Virus record (IMG/VR): IMGVR_UViG_3300021425_003554
From: a virus
Lineage: Duplodnaviria > Caudoviricetes
Length of the DNA stretch: 64,000 nt
Strand: one strand, 5' to 3'
Of the stretch, positions 4,501-56,576 are shown one piece after another. The position numbers and the translations under genes were made by a program. Below the pieces are notes generated by a model. The model made no database searches. It was not told the origin of the DNA and saw only the letters and a program-made list of their open reading frames with translations. Within the stretch, counting starts at the first letter, position 1; each line of letters begins with the position of its first letter.

Positions 4501-4765
4501 GCTGATATTTATAGGGTGATTGTTTGACCCGGCTCCGCTGTGGACGAAACCGGGCGGATCCCACAGTCCCTTTGGTACGGTCAACAGGACTCGAACCTGT
4601 AGTGCCCTCTCGAGCTCCAGCGTCAAAACACCGGATGTGTCTGGATACTCCTGATTTCACCATGACCGCACACGCATTATAACATGGCCCCGATGGTAAT
4701 GCTAGACCTTTTTTTTCTGCTGTGCAAATTTTTTTGATCTGAGGAACACCGGGTGTAGGCAGTTT

Positions 4766-4936
4766 TTACAACAGCAATCGCCTGTCCACTTCGCTCGCGG
4801 GCACATCACACACCTGTACCAGATCATATCGCTGTTCCAGTGAGTCATGCAGTATGTCAGCGGATTCCCGATCCAACTGCACATAGCAACGATGTAGTAT
4901 ACGGCCCTTTTGACACATAACGTAGTAGTACTTCAT
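4766..4936 (-). CDS. small hypothetical protein (MKYYYVMC..), leaderless
   Basis: perfect TTGACA-17-TATAAT ends 7 nt before the ATG. Confidence 0.6.
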   Translation of the reverse strand: MKYYYVMCQKGRILHRCYVQLDRESADILHDSLEQRYDLVQVCDVPASEVDRRLLL

Positions 4937-4943
4937 GTAGGTT

Positions 4944-4972
4944 ATTATACGTTCAAACGACACAGTTGTCAA
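4944..4972 (-). promoter_or_regulatory. consensus sigma70 promoter TTGACA-17-TATAAT
   Basis: direct sequence match. Confidence 0.85.
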
Positions 4973-5170
4973 ACCTGGGTATGCAGGGTAAAAAAATCCG
5001 CTGTGCATTTTTTTTAATATGGGGGTATTTTAGCACCACCCCGGTCCTTTTTAGGCCATGGGGCTTACAAATTGCCAAATTTATTACCAAAATAAAAATG
5101 CTATGCGACCGGGGCCAGATCTTTTTCTTTCTGGGTCCAGCCGGCCGACCCTGATTATTAAATATAACAT

Positions 5171-5842
5171 ATGGACAGGATGCAGAGATTGGTGGCCTTT
5201 GGATGTAGCAACACCCTGGGCGAGGGACTGGAGGGCTTCCAGTGGCGACAGCCTCACCCACGGGCATGGCCGGCCGTGTTGGGTCAGCAACTGGACCGAC
5301 CGGTGTTGAACCTGGGCCACTCGGGCGCCAGCAACAGGTACATAATGGATCGTGTGTTGAACACACCGCTCACACGCACCGACACAGTGGTGATCATGTG
5401 GACCAGTTTCGCCAGGCACTGTTGGTTCGATGCGGGGGGACAGGTGCGGCGTGCATTGCCACACGACATAGGAAGGCCACACGAATGGCCACACGACGGA
5501 CCCGAGATCGATGGTCGGCTCAGCGAGCTCTATTACCAACACATATGGTCGGCGCACGATGCCTGGCACGCCAGCATGACACAGATCAACTGGACACAGG
5601 CCTACCTACAGCGGCTGGGCGTGAGATGCCTGCACCTGCTGTGGTGGGAGGGCGATCATCACCGGGACAGGCCCTCATGGAACCAGACCCTGATACACAA
5701 CCTGCCGTTCAGCCAGGAGGACCGTGCACCGGACGGCCACCATCCGGGCGTGAACTCACACCACACACAGGCCCTACGCATCCGGGAACTGCTGTTCCGC
5801 ACACACCCCAACCACCCGGCCACCCTGCGATCCCACAGTTGA
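5171..5842 (+). CDS. SGNH/GDSL-like hydrolase
   Basis: block I FGCSNT, block II NLGHSGASN, block V DGHHPG; TAAATA at 5159-5164. Confidence 0.75.
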   Translation: MDRMQRLVAFGCSNTLGEGLEGFQWRQPHPRAWPAVLGQQLDRPVLNLGHSGASNRYIMDRVLNTPLTRTDTVVIMWTSFARHCWFDAGGQVRRALPHDIGRPHEWPHDGPEIDGRLSELYYQHIWSAHDAWHASMTQINWTQAYLQRLGVRCLHLLWWEGDHHRDRPSWNQTLIHNLPFSQEDRAPDGHHPGVNSHHTQALRIRELLFRTHPNHPATLRSHS

Positions 5843-6107
5843 TCTCTCCTTAGATGTGCCTCAATTACCAATAGATCGGGTTGATCTCTCCGTGTGCCCA
5901 CTCGGCACAACGAAGCTCACTGTGCGAACACTTGGTCAAAATGGTCCAAAATGGTACGCCAGGCCCGCCGCCAGCCCTGTGGTTATTGCATAGATTTTAC
6001 CAGATCAACTCGGTAATTGGATTGGCTATGTGGTTATCGCATGGCACTCGGACCGGTCGGGATCGCCCTTTACCACCACCAATCCGGCTGGGGATAAGTA
6101 CTCATAT

Positions 6108-6311
6108 ATGTTCAAGATGATAGTGGTGATATGTGCCCTGGGCAATCCCTGTGTGCAATTCGTGGAGAACCAACACCGGGTGTATGCCACACAAAACCAG
6201 TGCCTGGATCGTGCGGAGATCAAGTACCAACAGCTCACAGCAACACTGATCCAAGCGGGTTATCGACTGGCCGATTCCGGCTACTACTGTGTGAGGGACG
6301 ACAGCATATGA
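6108..6311 (+). CDS. small secreted-type Cys-containing protein
   Basis: TAAGTA 7 nt upstream; hydrophobic N-terminus; 4 Cys. Confidence 0.55.
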   Translation: MFKMIVVICALGNPCVQFVENQHRVYATQNQCLDRAEIKYQQLTATLIQAGYRLADSGYYCVRDDSI

Positions 6312-6382
6312 TCTGGGATCTAGTGATAATAACGCTGTCAATGGTGGCCTATGCCTACATGGCCTGGTCACTGCATAAGTGA
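6308..6382 (+). CDS. 24-aa membrane peptide
   Basis: ATGA overlap with the previous gene; single hydrophobic helix. Confidence 0.45.
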   Translation: MIWDLVIITLSMVAYAYMAWSLHK

Positions 6383-7243
6383 ACCAACACACCCCCCACC
6401 GACCCCAAGGCATATTGTTCGCAGATCAGTACCGCTCCCTACCTTTGCACACGGTGGCCAATCGGTGGCCCTCACCCCGGCCAGATCAACCCCAACACGC
6501 CTTTAGGCGTTTGCGACCCAGATTTGCGTATCGAAGGTCACAATTCTTTTGGTAAGATCCTAAGGATGGGGCACTATGCTAAAATACGGCAACCGCTTTT
6601 AGCCACCATACGACACGATCCCGCATACATACTCGTATGCCGTTTAGATACTATTGGGAATGGTTCCTGTTCTGGGTCACTGGCTATCCCTGTTGGGACT
6701 GTGTGAGGATACGCCTGATCATCCTGGTCCTGCTCGTCATCGTTGCCCATTTTTTGCTAGCCTAAACAGCCTCCACCATAAACGACCCACGGTGCTCTAC
6801 CATTCCAATTGTGCTTCACACACTGAACTCGCAGGCGATCTAGCCAAGAGGAGTCAGGGTAGATCACAGTTGGGATTATCAGCAGGCACTCTAGGTTAGG
6901 ATAGGGCTCGGTGTCAAAAATTGCTGTCGCGATATGCCTGTAAGGCATATAATGGAAACAAGCATTTGGTAAAATTTTTGCGGCGCACCGCTTCGCGGAC
7001 AGGGCCTATGGCTTCCGGTTGGTAATACCATGTCTGTGTGCTCTGGGGGTGGCTAGGTTAGGGATTGGATGGACTATGGATTCACATACTGGCCACACTC
7101 AAAACCGTGATGGTCGTGAGGTAAGTGATCAGTAGGGTGTATATGGCTATCTTGAGCTTCAGCATCTGTTCCTTGTTGTTGGGATTGTTGAACCTAGACT
7201 ATATATCTGTGGTTGGTTTTTTTTGGGTGGATATGCGAGCCTA

Positions 7244-8954: not shown

Positions 8955-8982
8955 ATAATAACACGAAACACTATACGGTCAA
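8955..8982 (-). promoter_or_regulatory. phage early promoter TTGACC-16-TATTAT
   Basis: member of the 10-copy GGTTGAC/16-bp family. Confidence 0.8.
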
Positions 8983-9090
8983 CCACCCAAAAAGTCGCAT
9001 AAAATGGAACTTTTTTACACCTTTTATGTGGGTAGACTCCAAAGAATCTACCCCATCTTCACTTACAGGGAGGTGTAAGATAGTGAAGCC

Positions 9091-13703: not shown

Positions 13704-13771
13704 CCACCTAAAAGTTTCCATTTTATGCGACTTTTTAGTCAGATCAACTATTTTTTTCACAATATCTTGTG

Positions 13772-13993
13772 TCATTTTCTTTTTTTGGTATATTTTTCAG
13801 GATTGGTGTAGGGTTCTATCATTTTATCAAACTGATCTTTGGTAATCATCTCCAACTCCACTGCGTCGGCTCCATCCTTGTAGAGTTGTTTCACATCATC
13901 CATTACCATCTTATATGGAAAATATCCCCAATGACGGATATCAATTTTCTTGCCTTTGGTTATCTTGACCTTGTAGAAACAATCATCCTTCAT
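13772..13993 (-). CDS. early hypothetical protein
   Basis: ATGA-coupled. Confidence 0.6.
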   Translation of the reverse strand: MKDDCFYKVKITKGKKIDIRHWGYFPYKMVMDDVKQLYKDGADAVELEMITKDQFDKMIEPYTNPEKYTKKRK

Positions 13994-14794: not shown

Positions 14795-15382
14795 CTATTC
14801 CGGTTTCATAAATGTGTGATTGCCTATCACTTCTATCAATTCAAATTCTTTGGCCCAATGTGGATACACAAGGTTATGGTTATAATAGTATGTGGCTCCT
14901 TGAGTGTTATCATATAGATGTCCTGATATGGTGTCCAGAGCAATATGCACCGAATCTCTCCATGCTGTCATATTGGCTTCTATGGTCGTGCCATCCATAT
15001 ATTGGATCCAAATAGTGTCCTTCTCTCCATCACACCACCATGAAAATTGGCATCTGTGTTTCCTAGGAATATACACTCTGTCTTCTTTAGACAATGTGGG
15101 ATCCTTCTTTGTCTTCCAACTTTCTCTCACTGGACCTTCCTTGACCACTTCACAATATGTGTTGGGGTGTGCCTCACTCTTAACTCTATTACGGGTCACA
15201 TTGGCCACCGCCTGTTTGCCTGAATGCGATTCTGCTCTGGCTTCGAAATATATGTTCTGCGATAGACACCATAATTCTTTTTGATCAATCTGGATATGGT
15301 TGTCTGCCCCAAACTGGGTCATTAGACTGATCATCAGTGCCATTGCCGCTTCGTTGATTATATTCATTTCATATCCTTCCAA
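14795..15382 (-). CDS. cell wall hydrolase (SleB/Hydrolase_2 family)
   Basis: CLSQNIYFEARAE, AVANVTRNRV, CQFSW, GATYY, IGNHTF. Confidence 0.9.
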   Translation of the reverse strand: MEGYEMNIINEAAMALMISLMTQFGADNHIQIDQKELWCLSQNIYFEARAESHSGKQAVANVTRNRVKSEAHPNTYCEVVKEGPVRESWKTKKDPTLSKEDRVYIPRKHRCQFSWWCDGEKDTIWIQYMDGTTIEANMTAWRDSVHIALDTISGHLYDNTQGATYYYNHNLVYPHWAKEFELIEVIGNHTFMKPE

Positions 15383-15527: not shown

Positions 15528-15851
15528 TTATTCGTCCTTTGCCAGAGCATCTGCCATATGGTCTGCTCTGCCCTGTTCGTATTCGTCGTTTTCGTCATTG
15601 TTAAAATAGTCTTCCCAAAACTCATCTGTCTCTTTCTCCCTTAACAGGTTTGAGTGTAATTGGCTCTCCTCGTCGATCAAGCCCAGCTCTCTGAAATCAT
15701 GGAGCATATCTTCAAATGGTATTTGGTCATTGCTATTCCATCTGACCACGCCTTCATGATCAATATGGGCACCTGTGTGACCGTTGGTACCAAACCAGTT
15801 GTCTCTGATCTGGTCTTCGTTGTATCTACAATCGTTGATCAATTTAACCAT
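15528..15851 (-). CDS. early hypothetical protein with acidic C-terminus
   Basis: TAATG-coupled start MVKLIN with AGGAGG SD. Confidence 0.65.
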   Translation of the reverse strand: MVKLINDCRYNEDQIRDNWFGTNGHTGAHIDHEGVVRWNSNDQIPFEDMLHDFRELGLIDEESQLHSNLLREKETDEFWEDYFNNDENDEYEQGRADHMADALAKDE

Positions 15852-16231
15852 TAAGCCACCTCCTTTAAAAGTTCTGTAGCCGGTTCCCAATCAATACCGT
15901 TGTCTGAATATTGCCAAGTACCCTTCATGAATAAAAATAAATGACCGATGTGTTTTCTCATTTCTTCCTTGTTCCAAGAAAGATTAGATTCAATAACATC
16001 ACCAAATCCATCCACATACCAATAATCATCTTTTCGGAAAGTTGGCATCAGAGTAGGTGAGTCCACCGCTTTCATGGCATCTTCTTTAGTTGGATATTTG
16101 TTCAAAAGTATTTGAGCCATAGCCGTATAACTTACATTCCAACCTGTTTCGATGGCAACCACATTTGACGAAGCGTCAATGTATCCTACCATGATACCGT
16201 GTTTATTTGTATAATCAATTTTGTTTAACAT
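15851..16231 (-). CDS. early hypothetical protein, distant relative of 17741-18259
   Basis: AGGAGG SD; similar N-terminal pattern. Confidence 0.6.
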   Translation of the reverse strand: MLNKIDYTNKHGIMVGYIDASSNVVAIETGWNVSYTAMAQILLNKYPTKEDAMKAVDSPTLMPTFRKDDYWYVDGFGDVIESNLSWNKEEMRKHIGHLFLFMKGTWQYSDNGIDWEPATELLKEVA

Positions 16232-16262: not shown

Positions 16263-16290
16263 AGTATAACACGGAACCAAATACGGTCAA
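16263..16290 (-). promoter_or_regulatory. phage early promoter TTGACC-16-TATACT
   Basis: direct match. Confidence 0.8.
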
Positions 16291-16310: not shown

Positions 16311-16358
16311 ATACTATATCTAGTGCCACCCTTCCGAGCTCGATACTACATCTAGTAT
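16311..16358. promoter_or_regulatory. tandem NrdR-box-like pair (ATACTATATCTAGTGC / ATACTACATCTAGTAT, 32-bp start-to-start)
   Basis: fits the acaCwAtATaTwGtgt consensus core and three-turn spacing. Confidence 0.6.
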
Positions 16359-16387
16359 CTTTCTAAAAAACCTATATTTTTTGGAAA

Positions 16388-16618
16388 TTATTTGGTGATT
16401 TTTTTGTAGATCGAATGTAATACATAAAACCAAACACCGTTGATCGCGGGTTCTATCAAGGCCACTGCTCCCGACTGCCATAGACTGGCTCCGGTCATCA
16501 CACTTACCACAATCATGGCGATGCAGATGTGTCCTATGGTGTAAATGATCGCCAACATAAGGCTGGATCCCTGTAGGAGTCGTTTCAGAAAATTAAATGC
16601 GCCTTCGTTTATTTCCAT
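16388..16618 (-). CDS. DUF2061-like small membrane protein
   Basis: IYTIGHICIA..ALIEPAINGVWFYVLH pattern. Confidence 0.7.
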   Translation of the reverse strand: MEINEGAFNFLKRLLQGSSLMLAIIYTIGHICIAMIVVSVMTGASLWQSGAVALIEPAINGVWFYVLHSIYKKITK

Positions 16619-16695
16619 ATCAATCTATAATTAGCAACCAGCAAGGTGAGGTGTAAAGTATGAATCCTTGCTGGTTGTATTCCCTACGGAATTCT

Positions 16696-16842
16696 TTAAT
16701 CCTTTTCCTCCCACCAAAGTTTTTCTGATTTTTTCTCTTCATCATTGAAATATTTTGGTAAAATTTTGAGAGCGAGGTAAAAACCCCCCACGGTCAATAT
16801 CATGCCCAAGGCGAACAATCCAAATCCTGCTTCTACCGTCAT
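16696..16842 (-). CDS. 48-aa membrane peptide
   Basis: overlap-coupled; single TM; translated by hand. Confidence 0.55.
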   Translation of the reverse strand: MTVEAGFGLFALGMILTVGGFYLALKILPKYFNDEEKKSEKLWWEEKD

Positions 16843-17072
16843 TGTTCTAGATACACTCCGTTCTCCTCCAATGCTTTCTCAATGATGCCCCTGTCTTTGT
16901 AGGTCCAAACCTCGAAACCGGCCGAGTTCATCTCGTCACCGTCCACCACACAATCAATACCTTCTCCTGATAGGATTGATTTTATGCTCGGAACAATGCT
17001 CCTGTCCTCATCCAGATCCCAACTTCCTATGTCAGCGACTTGGAAATAATGTTTTTTAGTTTTATCAGTCAT
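16839..17072 (-). CDS. early hypothetical protein (start MTDKTKK)
   Basis: follows the stop of the upstream ORF. Confidence 0.6.
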   Translation of the reverse strand: MTDKTKKHYFQVADIGSWDLDEDRSIVPSIKSILSGEGIDCVVDGDEMNSAGFEVWTYKDRGIIEKALEENGVYLEQ

Positions 17073-17073
17073 T

Positions 17074-17271
17074 TTATTTTCCAACCATCTTTTTGAAATT
17101 TTGATTGATAAGATGATGATCTCTAGCATCGGCCACCGTCTCCGGTTTTGGGGTGTCGTGGTCTATCAATTGGTTGATCATATCGATCGCCAGATCATTG
17201 TTCCCATCCTGGATACTTTCTTTTATGGCAGTCAATACCTGCAACTTATCGGTCATTCCGTTTATGTTCAT
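17074..17271 (-). CDS. early hypothetical protein
   Basis: TAATG-coupled. Confidence 0.6.
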   Translation of the reverse strand: MNINGMTDKLQVLTAIKESIQDGNNDLAIDMINQLIDHDTPKPETVADARDHHLINQNFKKMVGK

Positions 17272-17501
17272 TATGCCTCCTCCTTCACTAAACCTAAGTC
17301 ATAAAGCCTATCGGCTATCCACACTTGGGGATCTCCGTCTCTGGCTTTGGCTGTACCATATGGCATCTCTCCTGATCCCACATAGTAATCATATAAATCA
17401 TCATACAACGGTCCTCCCACATCGGCTAGATCGTCTAGATCTCCGCCCAGAGCATCGTGTTTGATCAATATGTTTTTCACTTCATCGTATTCACTTGTCA
17501 T
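17271..17501 (-). CDS. phage hypothetical protein with MPYGTAKARDGDP motif
   Basis: motif recalled from large-phage proteins. Confidence 0.65.
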   Translation of the reverse strand: MTSEYDEVKNILIKHDALGGDLDDLADVGGPLYDDLYDYYVGSGEMPYGTAKARDGDPQVWIADRLYDLGLVKEEA

Positions 17502-17741
17502 CTATGCTACCTCCCTTTCTAAATGATTTATGGGTCTACCATACTTTGTGAAAAGATAATCATTGGCTTGGCAATGTTCATCAATTTCAATATCAGTCAT
17601 ATCTGAAAAATAACGGAACTCAAATTCTCCTTTGTCATTCTCCACTTCGATGGGTACTTCATCCAACCAAATCCTCACAGAAGCCTTGCCTGCTTCATCC
17701 AAATCATTGTAATCGTATGCCTCAATCTTGATTATTTTCAT
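17502..17741 (-). CDS. early hypothetical protein
   Basis: TAATG-coupled. Confidence 0.6.
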   Translation of the reverse strand: MKIIKIEAYDYNDLDEAGKASVRIWLDEVPIEVENDKGEFEFRYFSDMTDIEIDEHCQANDYLFTKYGRPINHLEREVA

Positions 17742-18259
17742 TATGCCACCTTCCTTTCCTTCTTGTCATTGAGATATCTCTGTAGGCTCTCGATGTGTTC
17801 CTGGATGGCCTTTTCTTCCACAGGATTGAAACCCGCGGCATCTGAATAATGGGCATAGAACCAAGTCATACAAGGTTTGCCCAAGAAATCCTTCTCGCCC
17901 GCATCCTTCATTAGGTAGATGTATTCCTCACCAGAGTTGAATCCATCTTTGAGATACTCTGCTTCATTTTTGAATATCCTAGGGCCTTGATCCCGCTCAC
18001 CTCGGTCTCTCATATAATAACAATTCATATGCTCAAAGTCCGATCCAAACCTTGCCTTGTCGAAGTCGTGCTTCTCACCTATTGTGACGCCCCACTTGGA
18101 TGAATTGCCCAGTTTGATCGCCTTTAATACCTTTTTGGAATCTGTCCAGTTTTCACATAGGTTGTAGCCTAGACCCGAAAGGTATCCATCCCAATGTTGA
18201 TATGCGGAAATGATTGTTCCGTTTTTTTGTTTTATTCCTATTCTTGCTCTTGTTGCCAT
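17741..18259 (-). CDS. conserved phage hypothetical protein (MATRARIG..HWDGY family)
   Basis: recognisable N-terminal motif; EEYIYL. Confidence 0.75.
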   Translation of the reverse strand: MATRARIGIKQKNGTIISAYQHWDGYLSGLGYNLCENWTDSKKVLKAIKLGNSSKWGVTIGEKHDFDKARFGSDFEHMNCYYMRDRGERDQGPRIFKNEAEYLKDGFNSGEEYIYLMKDAGEKDFLGKPCMTWFYAHYSDAAGFNPVEEKAIQEHIESLQRYLNDKKERKVA

Positions 18260-18333
18260 TATGCCACCATCCCTTCTTTTAGTTTGTCGTTGATTTTCAT
18301 ATATGCTCTAACAGTTTCAAATTTTGGTTCTTT

Positions 18334-18672
18334 TTACAATTGATTGATTGCCACCAACTCTGCTTCTGCCTTGTGATATGCTCTTTCATTGTCGATAGTT
18401 TTTTTAATATCGTTTAGGTAATATGATCTATCTGATGAACCAAAACCTTCCTCTTCTGGCCAATCGTTCAAAGACCAAAGACATTCATTGGCAACTCCTA
18501 ACTCGTGTCTAGTTTTAACCCAACCTTCTCTAACGGCACTGATCATCAATGATCGAACTAGATCTGTTTCACCTGTATAATTTTCAATTATTTCATTTTC
18601 TAACTCTGATTGAGTAAGATTTTTGGTATAGTGTTCACATTTTTTATACATTTTCACCTCTCCTTTGTTCAT
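18334..18672 (-). CDS. early hypothetical protein
   Basis: directly after the promoter at 18678-18705. Confidence 0.6.
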   Translation of the reverse strand: MNKGEVKMYKKCEHYTKNLTQSELENEIIENYTGETDLVRSLMISAVREGWVKTRHELGVANECLWSLNDWPEEEGFGSSDRSYYLNDIKKTIDNERAYHKAEAELVAINQL

Positions 18673-18677
18673 AATTC

Positions 18678-18705
18678 AGTATAGCATGGATGGTAATAGC
18701 GTCAA
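18678..18705 (-). promoter_or_regulatory. phage early promoter TTGACG-16-TATACT
   Basis: 40 bp (18671-18710) identical to 21786-21825. Confidence 0.8.
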
Positions 18706-18725
18706 CCTGGTGATCTTGCTAAAAG

Positions 18726-18773
18726 ATACTATATCTAGTGCCACTCCTTCGAGCTCGATACTACATCTAGTAT
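18726..18773. promoter_or_regulatory. second copy of the tandem NrdR-box-like pair
   Basis: both 16-mers identical to 16311-16358; 32-bp spacing. Confidence 0.6.
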
Positions 18774-18806: not shown

Positions 18807-19037
18807 TCATCCAAATATCAAACCTGCCACATAGATCAGAGTTAGACCAGCATTCAGAACGATCAAAGAGTTCTCTCTCCAAAGTATGCCTATTACCACC
18901 CATATGCCATTTGCCACACAGAACAGATACACATACCAAGGATACAAGTTGAATGCCGCCAGTGTGGCCGCCATGATCAGTATGACTGTCCCAGTCCATG
19001 CCAAGGGTTGGTAAGGTTTAATCATTGGTTCTTTCAT
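18807..19037 (-). CDS. three-TM small membrane protein
   Basis: hydrophobic pattern; start uncertain. Confidence 0.6.
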   Translation of the reverse strand: MKEPMIKPYQPLAWTGTVILIMAATLAAFNLYPWYVYLFCVANGIWVVIGILWRENSLIVLNAGLTLIYVAGLIFG

Positions 19038-19302
19038 ATAAAGTAAATCTATCTGCGAATTTTTTGTGGCAATATGCCGACGGTCTCGAATAAACACATA
19101 CCCTACCCTCTTCTATGAATACCGATGATCCACGGTACTTTTTTCTGATCTTAACAACCTTTGCCAGTCTACTCGCCATGTAATGATTATACCAATTGTT
19201 AGGTATGTCTTTGGCAAAAGCCGATTCAGACTCTGGTGCCTTGTATTGTTTCAACCATACCTGTATATCTACGGGCAGACAAAATTTAACTAAACTGTCC
19301 AT
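19018..19302 (-). CDS. early hypothetical protein
   Basis: coupled ORF. Confidence 0.6.
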   Translation of the reverse strand: MDSLVKFCLPVDIQVWLKQYKAPESESAFAKDIPNNWYNHYMASRLAKVVKIRKKYRGSSVFIEEGRVCVYSRPSAYCHKKFADRFTLYERTND

Positions 19303-21820: not shown

Positions 21821-21893
21821 CCTGGCAAAAAGTCGCATAGAATGGAAGGTTTTTAATTATTTTTGGTGTGAAATATATAGAAATAATTACAGT

Positions 21894-24163: not shown

Positions 24164-24290
24164 ATTATAACATGGATGGTATTATGGTCAACCTGACTAA
24201 TAACTCGCATAAAATGGAAGTTTTTTGTTCGGCTTTATATATTATAATATAACTTTACCAGGTTGACCGTATTTGGTTCCGTGTTATAAT
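24164..24290. promoter_or_regulatory. divergent early promoter pair (- 24164-24191; + 24263-24290), both TTGACC-16-TATAAT
   Basis: direct match; marks the strand switch. Confidence 0.8.
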
Positions 24291-24296
24291 GACAGT

Positions 24297-24572
24297 ATGA
24301 TATATTTGGAAACAAAAAACGGTCAAATGGTCAAATCTTTGGAAACCTTGTATGAAGAATTCATAGATGGATACATCCAAGGCAATTTCATCGAAGGGGT
24401 CTGCTCTTGGAACGGAGACGATGCTTTGATGGGACCTAGATCATTCTCACATAAATTCAAAAAAGAAGCATCCAAATTGGGATTTGGTTATGAAGAATAC
24501 ATTGGTTTCGCCAATGAGTTGGAAGAGTGGTGCCAATCATATCTAGGTAATTTGGAGATGAAATTTAGATGA
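24297..24572 (+). CDS. early hypothetical protein, leaderless
   Basis: ATG 6 nt after the -10 box. Confidence 0.6.
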   Translation: MIYLETKNGQMVKSLETLYEEFIDGYIQGNFIEGVCSWNGDDALMGPRSFSHKFKKEASKLGFGYEEYIGFANELEEWCQSYLGNLEMKFR

Positions 24573-24776: not shown

Positions 24777-25250
24777 TTATTTAGGCTTAACTATTTTAGA
24801 CTTCTGTAATTTCTTTTTAGAGGCGAGACCCTTACCTTTTTTCAACTTCTTGCCTTTTTTCATTTTGGCAGTTCCGGTCTTCCTTTGCCCGATCTGTATG
24901 TTTTTCAATCTAGTGGATGCTCCACCTGACTTTATTGTTCTTGCTCTCTTCTGGGCGGTCTGCTTGGCTTTGGCCAATCGTTTCTGTGAAATCTTGGCAC
25001 CTGTTTTTGGTTTCAAAGGTGCGGAACAGGTATCCTGGTTGGCCACGATACGACCTTTCCTAGGACCTGCTATACATCTAAAACCTCTTTTCAAACCCTT
25101 GCCTTTGGTTCTTCGGAGGATTTGACCTATGCCTTCTGCTATGGCCGAATGGTCCGATGATGATACTATATCTTGTGCCACAATATCTTGTGCCTTTGAT
25201 TCGGTTATGGCACTAGAAGATTTGATTTGGATGATTTCGTTAATTCTCAT
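24777..25250 (-). CDS. Lys/Arg-rich basic late protein (MRINEII)
   Basis: TAAATA at 25259-25264 (-); very basic. Confidence 0.7.
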   Translation of the reverse strand: MRINEIIQIKSSSAITESKAQDIVAQDIVSSSDHSAIAEGIGQILRRTKGKGLKRGFRCIAGPRKGRIVANQDTCSAPLKPKTGAKISQKRLAKAKQTAQKRARTIKSGGASTRLKNIQIGQRKTGTAKMKKGKKLKKGKGLASKKKLQKSKIVKPK

Positions 25251-40473: not shown

Positions 40474-42906
40474 ATGACAGCAAACATTTCAGTACAAGAA
40501 CAAAAAACTCTGATAAATACCCATACAAAAAAAACAAAATCCAATTTGAATAATACTGTAATGACCAATACTAATACCTCCGCCATCAATGTTGCAAAAA
40601 GAGATGGCAGGTTGGAGCCATTGGACATCAATAAAATTCATTTTGTTGTTGAAGAAGCCTGTGAAGATTTGTCTGGGGTATCAGCATCACAGATAGAAAT
40701 CAATGCCAACTTGCAATTTTATGACGGAATGTCGACAAAGGACATTCAAAATGTTCTTGTGCGTTCGGCCAATGACCTGACCACTCTGGAAAATCCCAAT
40801 TATCAATATGCCGCGGCAAGGTTACTGCTTTATGATGTGAGAAAAGAAGCACACGGTCAATATGAATATATGCCACTCTTGAAATTAATTTTGAGAAATA
40901 TCAGATTGGGTGTGTATGACAAAGGCATCGTTGAAAAATACAATAAAACCGAATTAAAAAAATTTAACACTTGGATAAGAAGAGACAGAGATCTAAATTT
41001 TGCCTATGCTGGTTTAAGACAAGTAGTAGATAAGTATCTTGTACAAGACAGATCGTCGGGCGAGTTGTACGAAACTCCACAAGATATGTACATGATGATC
41101 TCAGCAACACTGTTTGCCGATTATCCAAAAAACAAAAGGATGAGCTATGTTAAAAAATATTATGACGCAATTTCTCAATTCAAAATTAATATCCCAACTC
41201 CGGTCATGGCCGGTGTACGTACGCCTATCAGACAGTTTGCAAGTTGTGTTCTCGTTGACAGCGACGACACTCTTCCTAGCATTTTTAGTACTGACATGGC
41301 TATTGGTCTTTACGTGGCTCGTCGTGCAGGAATTGGTATTAATGCTGGTAGAATTCGTGGTATCAATTCTAAGATACGTGGTGGTGAAGTTCAACACACT
41401 GGTGTCGTCCCGTTCCTCAAAAAATTCGAAAGCACAGTAAGGTGTTGCACACAGAACGGTGTGCGAGGTGGTTCAGCAACTGTACACTTCCCAATATGGC
41501 ACCAAGAAATCGAAGACATATTAGTTCTGAAAAACAACAAAGGCACAGAAGACAACAGGGTTAGAAAATTAGATTATTCAATCCAGTTATCTAAACTGTT
41601 TTACGAAAGATTCATTAACGACGAAGAAATAACTTTGTTCTCTCCACACGAAGTTCCGGGACTGTATGATGCGTTCGGCACAGACAAGTTTGATGATTTA
41701 TATGTAAAATATGAAAAAGATAAAAATGTTCCTAAAAAAACTATTTCAGCACAAGAACTATTTTTTGATCTATTGAAAGAAAGAGCAGAGACAGGACGTA
41801 TCTACATAATGAACATAGATCATTGTAATTCACATTCGTCCTTCAAAGATAAAGTTAGTATGTCAAACCTTTGCCAAGAAATAACATTGCCAACAACACC
41901 CATACAACACATCGACGACGACAAAGGTGAGATTGCTTTATGTATTCTTTCTGCAATCAATGTGGGTGCCCTCAATAATTTAGAAGAGTTAGAAAACTTA
42001 TGTGACCTGGCTGTGAGAGCCTTGGAAGAAATTATAGAATATCAAGAGTATCCTGTCAAAGCGGCAGAGACCAGCACAAAGAAAAGAAGAAGTTTGGGTG
42101 TTGGCTATATTGGGTTGGCACATTATCTAGCCAAACTAGGTTTTAATTATTCACAACCAGAAGCATGGGACTCAGTGGATAGACTATCTGAAGCATTTCA
42201 ATTCAATCTACTTAAAGCATCCAACAAACTGGCAGAAGAACGTGGTGCCTGCGAAGGTTTCTCTCAAACAAAATATGCAGACGGAATACTGCCTATAGAC
42301 ACATACAAAAAAGATATAGATAAAATTGTGCCACACAAACAAAGATATGCGTGGGAGTCACTGAGAAAAGACATTATAAAATACGGACTAAGACATTCAA
42401 CATTGTCAGCACAGATGCCATCGGAAAGTTCTTCAGTTGTTAGCAACGAAACCAACGGCATTGAACCACCGAGAGCATTGTTATCCATTAAGAAAAGCAA
42501 GAAAGGTCCACTCAAACAGATTGTGCCAGGATTTCCTAAATTGAAAAATGCCTACACTCTGTTGTGGGATATGCCATCAAATGAAGGTTACATCAATGTT
42601 GTGGCAATGATGCAGAAATATTTTGACCAAGCCATATCGGGCAACTGGAGTTACAATCCACTCAACTATGAAAATAACGAAGTACCGTTGTCAGTAATGG
42701 CTTCGGATTTATTAAATTCATACAAATACGGTTGGAAAACTTCTTACTATCAAAACACTTATGATTTCAAAGGTGACGAAGAAGATGTACAACCATCGGG
42801 TATAGAAACCACAGAGACCGCAGAAGGCGAAGACGTACAACTAACCGATCTTGGAGTAAATGAGAACAGTGAGGACGAAGAAGCCTGTGACGCCTGTGCA
42901 ATATAA
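40474..42906 (+). CDS. nrdA: class Ia ribonucleotide reductase alpha subunit with ATP cone (alternative start 40561)
   Basis: VAKRDG ATP cone, FASCVL, SNLCQEI, C-terminal CDAC; no intron/intein seen. Confidence 0.98.
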   Translation: MTANISVQEQKTLINTHTKKTKSNLNNTVMTNTNTSAINVAKRDGRLEPLDINKIHFVVEEACEDLSGVSASQIEINANLQFYDGMSTKDIQNVLVRSANDLTTLENPNYQYAAARLLLYDVRKEAHGQYEYMPLLKLILRNIRLGVYDKGIVEKYNKTELKKFNTWIRRDRDLNFAYAGLRQVVDKYLVQDRSSGELYETPQDMYMMISATLFADYPKNKRMSYVKKYYDAISQFKINIPTPVMAGVRTPIRQFASCVLVDSDDTLPSIFSTDMAIGLYVARRAGIGINAGRIRGINSKIRGGEVQHTGVVPFLKKFESTVRCCTQNGVRGGSATVHFPIWHQEIEDILVLKNNKGTEDNRVRKLDYSIQLSKLFYERFINDEEITLFSPHEVPGLYDAFGTDKFDDLYVKYEKDKNVPKKTISAQELFFDLLKERAETGRIYIMNIDHCNSHSSFKDKVSMSNLCQEITLPTTPIQHIDDDKGEIALCILSAINVGALNNLEELENLCDLAVRALEEIIEYQEYPVKAAETSTKKRRSLGVGYIGLAHYLAKLGFNYSQPEAWDSVDRLSEAFQFNLLKASNKLAEERGACEGFSQTKYADGILPIDTYKKDIDKIVPHKQRYAWESLRKDIIKYGLRHSTLSAQMPSESSSVVSNETNGIEPPRALLSIKKSKKGPLKQIVPGFPKLKNAYTLLWDMPSNEGYINVVAMMQKYFDQAISGNWSYNPLNYENNEVPLSVMASDLLNSYKYGWKTSYYQNTYDFKGDEEDVQPSGIETTETAEGEDVQLTDLGVNENSEDEEACDACAI

Positions 42907-42914
42907 ATAACCCA

Positions 42915-44015
42915 ATGACGAAGACAGTATTCAATAAACAAAAAATAGATTTCACAAAACAACCCATGTTCTTTGGTGAGGACGGTGGCGTACAGAGGTA
43001 CGACGATTTCAAATATCCACAGTTTGATAAACTGAACCAAACCATGATTGGTTACTTCTGGAGACCAGAAGAAGTTTCATTACAAAAAGACAGAGCAGAC
43101 TATCAAGGATTCAGGCCAGAACAAAAACACATATTCACCAGCAATCTAAAATATCAAACACTGTTGGATTCAGTGCAGGGCAGAGGACCAAGTCTTATGT
43201 TCCTACCATATGTTTCTAATCCGGAACTGGAAGGCTGTATTGTGACTTGGGATTTCTTCGAAACCATACACTCAAGATCATACACACACATCATGAAGAA
43301 TGTGTATTCGGATCCATCAGAAGTGTTTGACACAATATTAGATGACAAGGAAATATTAAAAAGAGCAGAAAGTGTAACAGGCGAGTATGACAAGTTCGGA
43401 GCAATGGCCATGGATTATGCTGTGGGCAAAAAAGTGGACATGATTGAACTTAAGAAACAACTATATCTGGCAATGATGACCGTGAACTTGCTGGAGGGTT
43501 TGAGATTTTATATTTCATTTGCTTGTACCTTTGCATTTGGTGAATTGAAATTGATGGAGGGATCGGCCAAGATCCTCTCACTGATCGCTAGAGACGAAGC
43601 CACACACTTGAACCTTTCAACACATGTGATCAAAGCATGGCAAAAAGGTGATGATCCTGAAATGACCAAAGCAATGAAAGGCACAGAAAAAACTGTGCTC
43701 CAGATGTTCAAAGACTGTGTGGAAGAAGAAAAAGCCTGGGCGAAATATCTATTCAGAGACGGGTCGATTATTGGATTGAACGAAAGATTATTAGGATCTT
43801 ATGTTGAGTGGACAGCAAACAAGCGATTGAGAGCATTGGGCTTTGATCCAATTTACGATATATCAGCATCACAAAATCCTTTACCTTGGACACAGCATTG
43901 GTTGTCATCAAAAGGTATGCAGGTGGCTCCACAGGAGACAGAAGTAGAGTCTTACATTGTGGGTGGCATCAAGCAAGACGTCAAGAAAGACTCATTCAAA
44001 AAGTTTTCATTATAA
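42915..44015 (+). CDS. nrdB: class Ia ribonucleotide reductase beta subunit
   Basis: FWRPEEV, LDSVQGR, ETIHSRSY, EGLRFY, RDEATH, APQETE. Confidence 0.98.
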   Translation: MTKTVFNKQKIDFTKQPMFFGEDGGVQRYDDFKYPQFDKLNQTMIGYFWRPEEVSLQKDRADYQGFRPEQKHIFTSNLKYQTLLDSVQGRGPSLMFLPYVSNPELEGCIVTWDFFETIHSRSYTHIMKNVYSDPSEVFDTILDDKEILKRAESVTGEYDKFGAMAMDYAVGKKVDMIELKKQLYLAMMTVNLLEGLRFYISFACTFAFGELKLMEGSAKILSLIARDEATHLNLSTHVIKAWQKGDDPEMTKAMKGTEKTVLQMFKDCVEEEKAWAKYLFRDGSIIGLNERLLGSYVEWTANKRLRALGFDPIYDISASQNPLPWTQHWLSSKGMQVAPQETEVESYIVGGIKQDVKKDSFKKFSL

Positions 44016-56196: not shown

Positions 56197-56270
56197 AAAC
56201 TTATATTAACATCCAAAAAAACAAGTGTCAACCTATTGACAAAATACCATTAATGTGTTTAAATACTAGC

Positions 56271-56576
56271 ATGGACGTTGATGGGTAGACAATACCTGGA
56301 CAAGACGTCGGGGCAGTACCGACCACCTCCACCACTCACTTGAAACACACACAATAGATTTGTGCTTTGAGGGGGTGAACTAGGATCGATTGACAGTTAA
56401 AACTATCTGGAGTTCATCGTGATTATTCCGACGTAATCGGGTTATTTTATAAATGCTAATAAAAAAGCATTGGGATTTGCTGACCTAACAGTTGGTCAAT
56501 CTCAACTAAGATTAGCGGCTTAATAGCCAACAATCTTGCGGGTTTGGGGACACCTGGGAACAGAAGTTCCCCCAAC
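56271..56576 (+). ncRNA. ssrA: circularly permuted (two-piece) tmRNA
   Basis: T-arm plus CACCTCC-ACCA at 56305-56334 precedes 5' GGGGGTG at 56371; 7-bp acceptor stem with G3.U70; tag ORF 56455-56523 ends LAA*; outer ends approximate. Confidence 0.95.

Follow-up and report, generated by a model that had tools for sequence, protein, structure and literature searches.

Two early-promoter cassettes in a 64,000-nt stretch of phage DNA each carry a tandem pair of 16-bp boxes that match the operators of NrdR, the bacterial repressor of ribonucleotide reductase (RNR) genes. The stretch (IMG/VR record IMGVR_UViG_3300021425_003554; Duplodnaviria; Caudoviricetes), which we call the window and to which all coordinates refer, is from an uncultured marine T4-like myovirus. 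We put at roughly 60% the probability that these pairs are genuine NrdR operators inside repeated early-promoter cassettes of the promoter-early stem-loop (PeSL) type, and that NrdR of the host lowers the firing of these promoters in keeping with the status of deoxyadenosine triphosphate (dATP) and ATP in the cell.

The two pairs share the same anatomy. Specifically, the promoter-proximal box 1 of pair A (16311–16326, ATACTATATCTAGTGC), which agrees with the NrdR consensus at 13 of 16 positions, is separated by a 16-bp linker (16327–16342) from the distal box 2 (16343–16358, ATACTACATCTAGTAT). Pair B repeats both boxes, ATACTATATCTAGTGC at 18726–18741 and ATACTACATCTAGTAT at 18758–18773, around a linker of equal length (18742–18757). 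In both, the boxes lie 32 bp apart from start to start and their centres are about three helical turns from one another; each box contains an ACTA-N4-TAGT core, and box 2 is a 6+6 palindrome. These are exact matches, at all four positions, to the boxes that a sequence-only reading of the stretch had placed at 16311/16343 and 18726/18758 with 32-bp spacing. Such sequences are rare in this DNA: a degenerate 16-mer gives 7 matches in the window against 0.16 expected, the strict pair pattern ACTANATNTAGT-N19-21-ACTANATNTAGT gives 2 against 0.00 in 100 shuffles, and a relaxed pair scan of the window (at least 5/6 key positions, at least 10/16 overall, spacing 30–33) returns pairs A and B only, against 0.23 expected. 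The counting of copies covered the window and an overlapping relative, G001.

The likeness to known NrdR operators is close. NrdR sites consist of two 16-bp boxes with highly conserved C4, A6, A8, T9, T11 and G13, of which C4 and G13 are critical by mutation; the length of the linker matters and its sequence is free, and NrdR proteins bind the boxes of other species (PMC13584703). Spacers are 15–16 bp, with 14–18 bp tolerated, and 16 bp is optimal for the four NrdR proteins tested (PMC12051234). All four boxes of the window carry all six key positions (C4 A6 A8 T9 T11 G13), around the optimal spacer. Likewise, box 2 of the phage is identical at 14 of 16 positions, and equal throughout positions 3–16, to box 2 of Escherichia coli nrdHIEF (CAACTACATCTAGTAT), a box that binds both E. 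coli and Streptomyces coelicolor NrdR (PMC13584703).

When the strict pair pattern was scanned over 185,579 species genomes, it was found at at least 120 bacterial loci across many phyla, and among the bacterial loci listed 89 of 120 have nrdA/B, nrdJ or nrdD within ~8 kb; in four sampled bacterial loci, Pfam placed NrdD or NrdJ directly beside the pair. Because 89 of the 120 listed loci adjoin an RNR gene, the strict pattern is diagnostic of NrdR operators. It is therefore well supported that the phage pairs are NrdR-type operators, indistinguishable by sequence from real ones and predicted to be bound. The sequence-only reading had called the pairs NrdR-box-like, and this stands with respect to the key positions, the 16-bp spacer, the free linker, the substitutions seen in relatives and the identity with the pattern found at RNR genes; where the likeness breaks down is in the location of the sites, which lie upstream of the promoter and not over it.

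Conservation in relatives follows the same positions. Six versions of the cassette were retrieved with a flank pattern that was free of box sequence but partly enforced the promoter distance. Besides G001, which is the nearest record and holds both pairs, the metagenome scan with this pattern yielded a fragment that does not differ from G001 at pair B, along with the more distant relatives L339 and L340, in which the cassette precedes an orthologue of the first gene of cassette A. The best alignments of the proteins flanking the cassette in L339 and L340 show only ~50–70% identity, a distance at which neutral sites should be saturated. Nonetheless, all six versions keep a 16-bp spacer, substitutions in box 2 are confined to the degenerate positions 7 and 10 (C..C, G..A or A..G), and box 1 varies at positions 1–4, 7, 10 and 12. 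Across the six versions the key positions vary in 1 of 12 columns, compared with 12 of 16 columns in the linker (Fisher p = 6e-4). In G001, box 1 of pair B reads ATACTATATGTTGTGC, with the same reading in two metagenome runs, and its changes (C10->G and A12->T) fall at degenerate positions of the consensus. Searches of the region and of the 58-bp pair by Megablast and blastn against 50,697 phage records gave no match.

That the linker sequence differs between copies, as the sequence-only reading had it, becomes meaningful only in the relatives: within the window the linkers of A and B differ at only 3 of 16 positions, and both pairs are parts of one 115-nt repeat with 89% identity. Because this is a single duplicated block, the two pairs count as one independent event within the genome. 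Such a history would fit a chance resemblance that was carried to a second place when the promoter repeat was duplicated. However, even one match to 20 specified bases is unexpected in 64 kb, given that shuffled sequences yield 0.00, and the element is selectively conserved in relatives whose neutral sites are saturated; we regard a coincidence of this kind as very improbable.

The pairs occupy a defined place within a repetitive regulatory architecture. Between ~8 and 25 kb, the genes form a minus-strand array of small open reading frames (ORFs), punctuated by a repeated near-consensus sigma-70 promoter, aGGTTGAC(C/G)-N16-TG-TATACT, that is followed by a GGAGGTG ribosome-binding site. Copies of this promoter are found on the minus strand at 8982, 13703, 16290, 18705, 21820, 23289 and 24191, and on the plus strand at 24263. 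Early promoter A (16263–16290, minus strand) has the -35 element TTGACC (16290–16285), a 16-nt spacer and the extended -10 element TG-TATACT (16268–16263), with 10 of 12 matches and the TG present; early promoter B (18678–18705, minus strand) has TTGACG, a 16-nt spacer and TG-TATACT. At promoters 16290 and 18705 alike, box 1 lies upstream and ends 20 nt from the -35 element, in agreement with the 21–68 bp that had been claimed for the boxes, and each pair spans about -55 to -102 of its promoter. No promoter overlapping the boxes was called on either strand. Metagenome and metatranscriptome contigs break at the repeated cassette and cannot show transcript ends; a salt-marsh RNA library contains parts of the region, which is no proof of transcription.

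Two further points of the sequence-only reading bear on this slot and were borne out. An AAAAGT element fills it in the cassettes at 8982, 13703, 21820 and 24191, and box scans of the window found no NrdR-like box upstream of the phage nrdA at 40474. The element in those four cassettes has the form A5GT-N13-ACT5 and lies 5–6 bp from the -35 element in either orientation (8989–9016, 13710–13736, 21827–21854 and 24199–24226). Its predicted folding is weak or nil (0 to -7 kcal/mol), and rather than a terminator it may be a site for a protein. As a separate matter, the flank TTGCTAAAA was considered as a MotA box of a middle promoter and discarded, the spacing to any -10 element being wrong.

How might the pairs act from this position? 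An NrdR tetramer carrying dATP plus ATP/ADP kinks each of its boxes (PMC9110341). In the mechanism we favor, host NrdR in this form would bind at about -55 to -102 and sharply bend the DNA just upstream of the -35 element, and firing at both cassettes would be lowered through a block of the region used by the UP-element and the C-terminal domain of the RNA polymerase alpha subunit. NrdR may also stop read-through from the cassette upstream. Expression of the two small-gene cassettes, with a cell-wall hydrolase gene in one of them, would then track the dATP/ATP status of the cell as that of host RNR genes does. What the sequences show is the anatomy of the pairs, their conservation, their position at the promoters and that the likely host clade has nrdR; binding by NrdR, and the direction and size of any effect on transcription, are our inference.

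A different possibility is that the element works as nucleic acid structure, with no protein reader. As transcribed, boxes 2 and 1 of each cassette are predicted to pair into a long hairpin (-24 and -29 kcal/mol; z = -3.6 and -5.2), preceded by an A-run and followed by CUUUU, and with a stem lengthened by the flanks AAAAG and CTTTT. These hairpins resemble the A3-4G3-loop-C3T3-4 stem-loops of PeSLs (PMC4122927), and they occupy the slot of the A5GT...ACT5 element in other cassettes, so that one could see in them only the stem-loop part of a promoter-terminator cassette that limits read-through and serves recombination. Exchange between cassettes, which such a role would accommodate, does seem to have occurred: box 1 and the linker of pair B (18726–18757) resemble cassette A of the window and are unlike the corresponding stretch of G001 (L341:2615-2646), with 2 box changes and 7 linker changes between the window and G001 amid nearly identical flanks. 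Both variants of pair B occur in metagenome runs, and the pattern suggests gene conversion between cassettes A and B in one lineage.

Against a purely structural role, two tandem palindromes pair automatically, whatever they are for. The sequence-only reading had named, as the outcome that would speak against it, relatives that keep the hairpin pairing and not the box sequence and phasing; in the six-sequence alignment, the boxes and their spacing are kept and there is no covariation of the hairpin (score 0.058, compared with 0.056 in shuffles). At 8 of the 23 hairpin pairs every change breaks the pairing, and a double change is seen at one; the folds predicted for L339 and L340 are different and lack the flank pairing. 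A consensus scan of the window called no terminator at the element. Furthermore, structure leaves the invariant central AT, the confinement of changes to positions 7 and 10, and the exact NrdR spacing unexplained. We consider it unlikely that structure is all there is to the element.

If NrdR is to be the reader, the host must possess it. The window encodes NrdA with an ATP-cone, NrdB, DNA ligase and a DUF6267 protein, and the best matches are to Pelagibacter phage Mosig, cyanomyophages, HTVC008M and Methylophilales phage Melnitz. In addition, the phage carries on its plus strand an alphaproteobacterial two-piece (permuted) transfer-messenger RNA (56216–56574; RF01849, 112 bits), the DNA of which matches 63 of 81 genomes of the Pelagibacterales, taken here as the order containing Ca. 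Fonsibacter, compared with 8 of 301 genomes sampled across the class. This phage-borne RNA makes a member of the Pelagibacterales (SAR11), within the Alphaproteobacteria, the probable host. The sequence-only reading presupposed nrdR in its predicted host, and NrdR (TIGR00244) scores above the cut-off in 78 of the 81 genomes of this inferred clade, which makes a host without nrdR unlikely.

Candidate native sites exist in this clade as well. Five sampled Pelagibacterales nrdA genes have a box with 6/6 key positions upstream (for example ACACAACATCTAGTTG), and in four of the five this box lies ~50 nt from the start codon. Pairs with perfect cores were found in only 3 of the 81 SAR11 genomes, no more than with a reversed control; native SAR11 operators are more degenerate than the perfect-core pattern. 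One observation from a metagenome-assembled genome of Ca. Fonsibacter, a freshwater SAR11 relative, deserves mention on its own: a perfect NrdR-type pair (L118:3258-3301) ends 15 bp before gcrA, which encodes a cell-cycle regulator, and on this sequence evidence gcrA is a possible non-RNR target of NrdR in the host clade.

The same operator evidence can also be read as a decoy, in which the boxes bind host NrdR for the sake of titration and any effect on phage promoters is incidental. The two pairs and the single boxes of the replicating genome would sequester what little NrdR a tiny SAR11 cell contains, and the host nrd genes would be derepressed. It is consistent with this that the sites are placed off the core promoter, at a position from which a repressor has least effect, and that strong NrdR-like boxes are enriched in the window (7 compared with 1.1 expected), some of them away from promoters, such as those at 25163/25178 inside a gene. 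The best single box of the window (13757–13772, TCACAATATCTTGTGT; 14/16 positions, 6/6 key positions) lies 1 nt after the stop codon of the upstream gene and upstream of the AAAAGT element of promoter 13703; it is identical in G001, and scans of the window found no partner box for it. However, the phage has nrdAB genes of its own that lack an NrdR box and should be less dependent on the host enzyme, and there are only two full pairs in 64 kb. A decoy has no need of a fixed distance from the promoter, yet this distance is kept in all six versions (the search pattern having partly enforced it), and distant relatives retain the pair of cassette A at the orthologous promoter. Hence titration as the sole purpose seems to us improbable, if slightly less so than the purely structural role, although the sequence evidence accommodates both functions that the sequence-only reading had offered, titration and gating by nucleotide status.

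It is also worth considering what weighs against regulation by host NrdR. The assignment of the host is indirect. The pairs serve promoters of non-RNR genes and so lack the location at an RNR promoter that NrdR operators usually have, and searches of Pfam, PHROGs and a protein atlas link none of the cassette genes to nucleotide metabolism. NrdR sites usually overlap the promoter or the transcription start of an RNR operon (PMC9110341), but the phage pairs overlap neither the -35 element, the -10 element nor the start; because the boxes lie off the places where NrdR usually acts, repression from -55 to -102 is not assured. Native sites wholly upstream of the -35 and -10 elements are known at Streptococcus pneumoniae nrdHEF, and distal pairs at Listeria monocytogenes nrdAB (PMC12051234). 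The critical C4 is gone from box 1 of L339 and L340, which scores 5/6, and the full pair is thus not strictly maintained. In both the window and G001, the complementarity of the boxes runs 5 bp beyond them (AAAAG ... CTTTT), for which NrdR has no need, and because these flanks are unexplained by NrdR we keep a residual role for structure. Finally, the cultured pelagimyophages Mosig and HTVC008M, together with Methylophilales phage Melnitz, have neither the pairs nor an enrichment of the box core, and the 64-kb window is only part of the phage genome, so that a phage-encoded binding protein could lie elsewhere.

This last point leads to the possibility that the boxes are read by another protein, either a regulator encoded by the phage or a different host factor, and that their likeness to NrdR sites is convergent. 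The absence of any connection between the regulated genes and the supply of deoxynucleoside triphosphates (dNTPs) would be natural in that case, and conservation extends to the phage-specific flanks ATA...TAT and GCCAC, for which the NrdR consensus does not call. On the other hand, which positions vary and which stay fixed is exactly as in NrdR boxes, down to the unchanging central AT and the 16-bp spacer, and several unrelated families of viral contigs share the box together with a partner at 31–33 bp, which points to a universal host factor. Neither the window (tblastn with four bacterial NrdR proteins) nor G001 (TIGR00244) contains a credible NrdR homologue or other match. A match of 21 residues to NrdR within the first gene of cassette A is spurious, as that protein has no zinc ribbon. 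We judge a different reader protein to be about as unlikely as a role in structure alone, and operators for host NrdR are the interpretation we carry forward.

Looking beyond this phage, box 2 with a partner at 30–33 bp is present in several unrelated families of viral contigs (L020:2570-2615, L019:108-155, L058, L043 and L012), where it lies either at the beginning of a primase-helicase gene or close to terminase genes and the ends of contigs. In viral contigs the strict pair pattern is matched by at least 120 stretches, compared with 38 for a control with off-phase spacing and 22 for a reversed pattern. Among the viral matches listed, an RNR gene is close by in 8 of 119 loci and is nrdD in every case, as judged by tblastn with few queries that may miss divergent RNRs. 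The literature we searched contains no description of NrdR boxes in phages. These observations invite the speculation that portable NrdR operator pairs before non-RNR genes are a general, as yet undescribed phage strategy for hijacking the dNTP sensor of the host, a generalization that we offer tentatively and hold to be distinctly less secure than the account of the two cassettes themselves.

The genes that the cassettes serve are small and mostly anonymous. Cassette A begins with a gene for 126 amino acids (15851–16231, minus strand) of no known family, whose orthologues in L339 and L340 are ~52% identical, and continues with genes for 120 and 54 amino acids and a Hydrolase_2/endolysin-like gene for 195 amino acids (14795–15382). 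The first gene of cassette B (18334–18672, minus strand; ~105 amino acids) likewise belongs to no known family, and its true start is likely the ATG at 18651, behind the ribosome-binding site GGAGAGGTG. Upstream of pair A, the preceding cassette ends with a gene for 76 amino acids (16388–16618, minus strand), a weak match to DUF2061 membrane proteins, with its stop codon 29 nt from box 2; upstream of pair B, the last gene is a DUF6552 gene for 96 amino acids (18807–19097, minus strand), with its stop codon 33 nt from box 2. Apart from the Hydrolase_2/endolysin-like gene and the two DUFs, Pfam, PHROGs and the protein atlas assigned no function to cassette genes. The phage nrdA (with its ATP-cone) and nrdB lie well apart from the cassettes, on the plus strand at 40474–44015.

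Several other features of the window were noted along the way. The plus-strand promoter copy (24263–24300) is identical to promoter 16290 from the -35 element through the spacer, has TATAAT as its -10 element and faces the minus-strand array (24326/24191), marking a divergent switch point at ~24.2 kb. At 25163–25193, inside a minus-strand ORF (24777–25250) that is of late type, two overlapping boxes with 6/6 key positions lie 15 bp apart and encode a tandem AQDIV-AQDIV; the first box and its flank are identical at 19 of 20 positions to box 1 of the cassettes and its flank, and are kept in G001. These boxes could be a binding site, the source of box 1 or a coincidence. Lastly, the region at 4700–7200 has 53% G+C, compared with ~39% elsewhere, and few long ORFs; it adjoins a tRNA-like RNA (4573–4669), and Rfam at its gathering threshold gave no match within it.

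It is informative to set the phage pairs beside systems that are already known. Bacterial NrdR operators at ribonucleotide reductase promoters were reportedly described by Rodionov and Gelfand in 2005, and to our knowledge descriptions of NrdR to date treat it as specific to RNR genes. The phage pairs share with those operators the two partly palindromic 16-bp boxes, the six key positions and the 16-bp spacer of free sequence; they differ in fronting small genes of no known function instead of RNR genes, in lying 20 bp upstream of the -35 element and not over the site of RNA polymerase, and in their absence from the phage's own nrdAB. A mobile element that places the operator of a host sensor on its own DNA, whether to read host physiology or to soak up a regulator, is not without parallel: LexA boxes on temperate phages allow phage and prophage promoters to borrow a global repressor of the host, and datA is a titration locus for DnaA. 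What would be different here is that the sensor is NrdR, which responds to dATP and ATP, and that the phage is lytic and T4-like.

The cassettes themselves have a precedent in the PeSL cassettes described in T4-type phages (PMC2839356, PMC4122927). They have in common the repeated near-consensus sigma-70 early promoters, the upstream arrangement of A-run, inverted repeat and T-run, the placement between unrelated small ORFs of a hyperplastic region, the signs of exchange between copies, and adjacent insertions and deletions in relatives, of which the 1.4–2.3 kb of extra DNA just upstream of the cassette in L339 and L340 are examples. In contrast to PeSLs, the stem-loop part of two of the phage cassettes is a predicted pair of protein operators in which the pairing is not conserved. 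In the literature searched we found no report of a PeSL that contains the site of a host repressor. What is new here is thus a known type of operator on phage early promoters of non-RNR genes, within cassettes of the PeSL type.

Should this interpretation be correct, the consequences would extend beyond two cassettes. Pairs that ride in recombining PeSL cassettes could bring any early gene under dATP/ATP control; in the phage described here, two early cassettes, one with a cell-wall hydrolase, would be timed to the state of the precursor pool, and at high genome copy number the sites could release the RNR genes of the host from repression. The NrdR regulon would then reach beyond RNR genes and into the virosphere. 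The likely host clade, SAR11, is the most abundant bacterial clade of the ocean, and the pattern is common in viral contigs, where it is rarely beside RNR genes among the matches listed. Given that NrdR proteins bind across species in vitro, the idea is easy to test. If NrdR does bind these pairs, phages would be able to read or jam the dATP/ATP sensor of their hosts, which would add a metabolite-sensing layer to the timing of phage genes and a new class of targets to NrdR.

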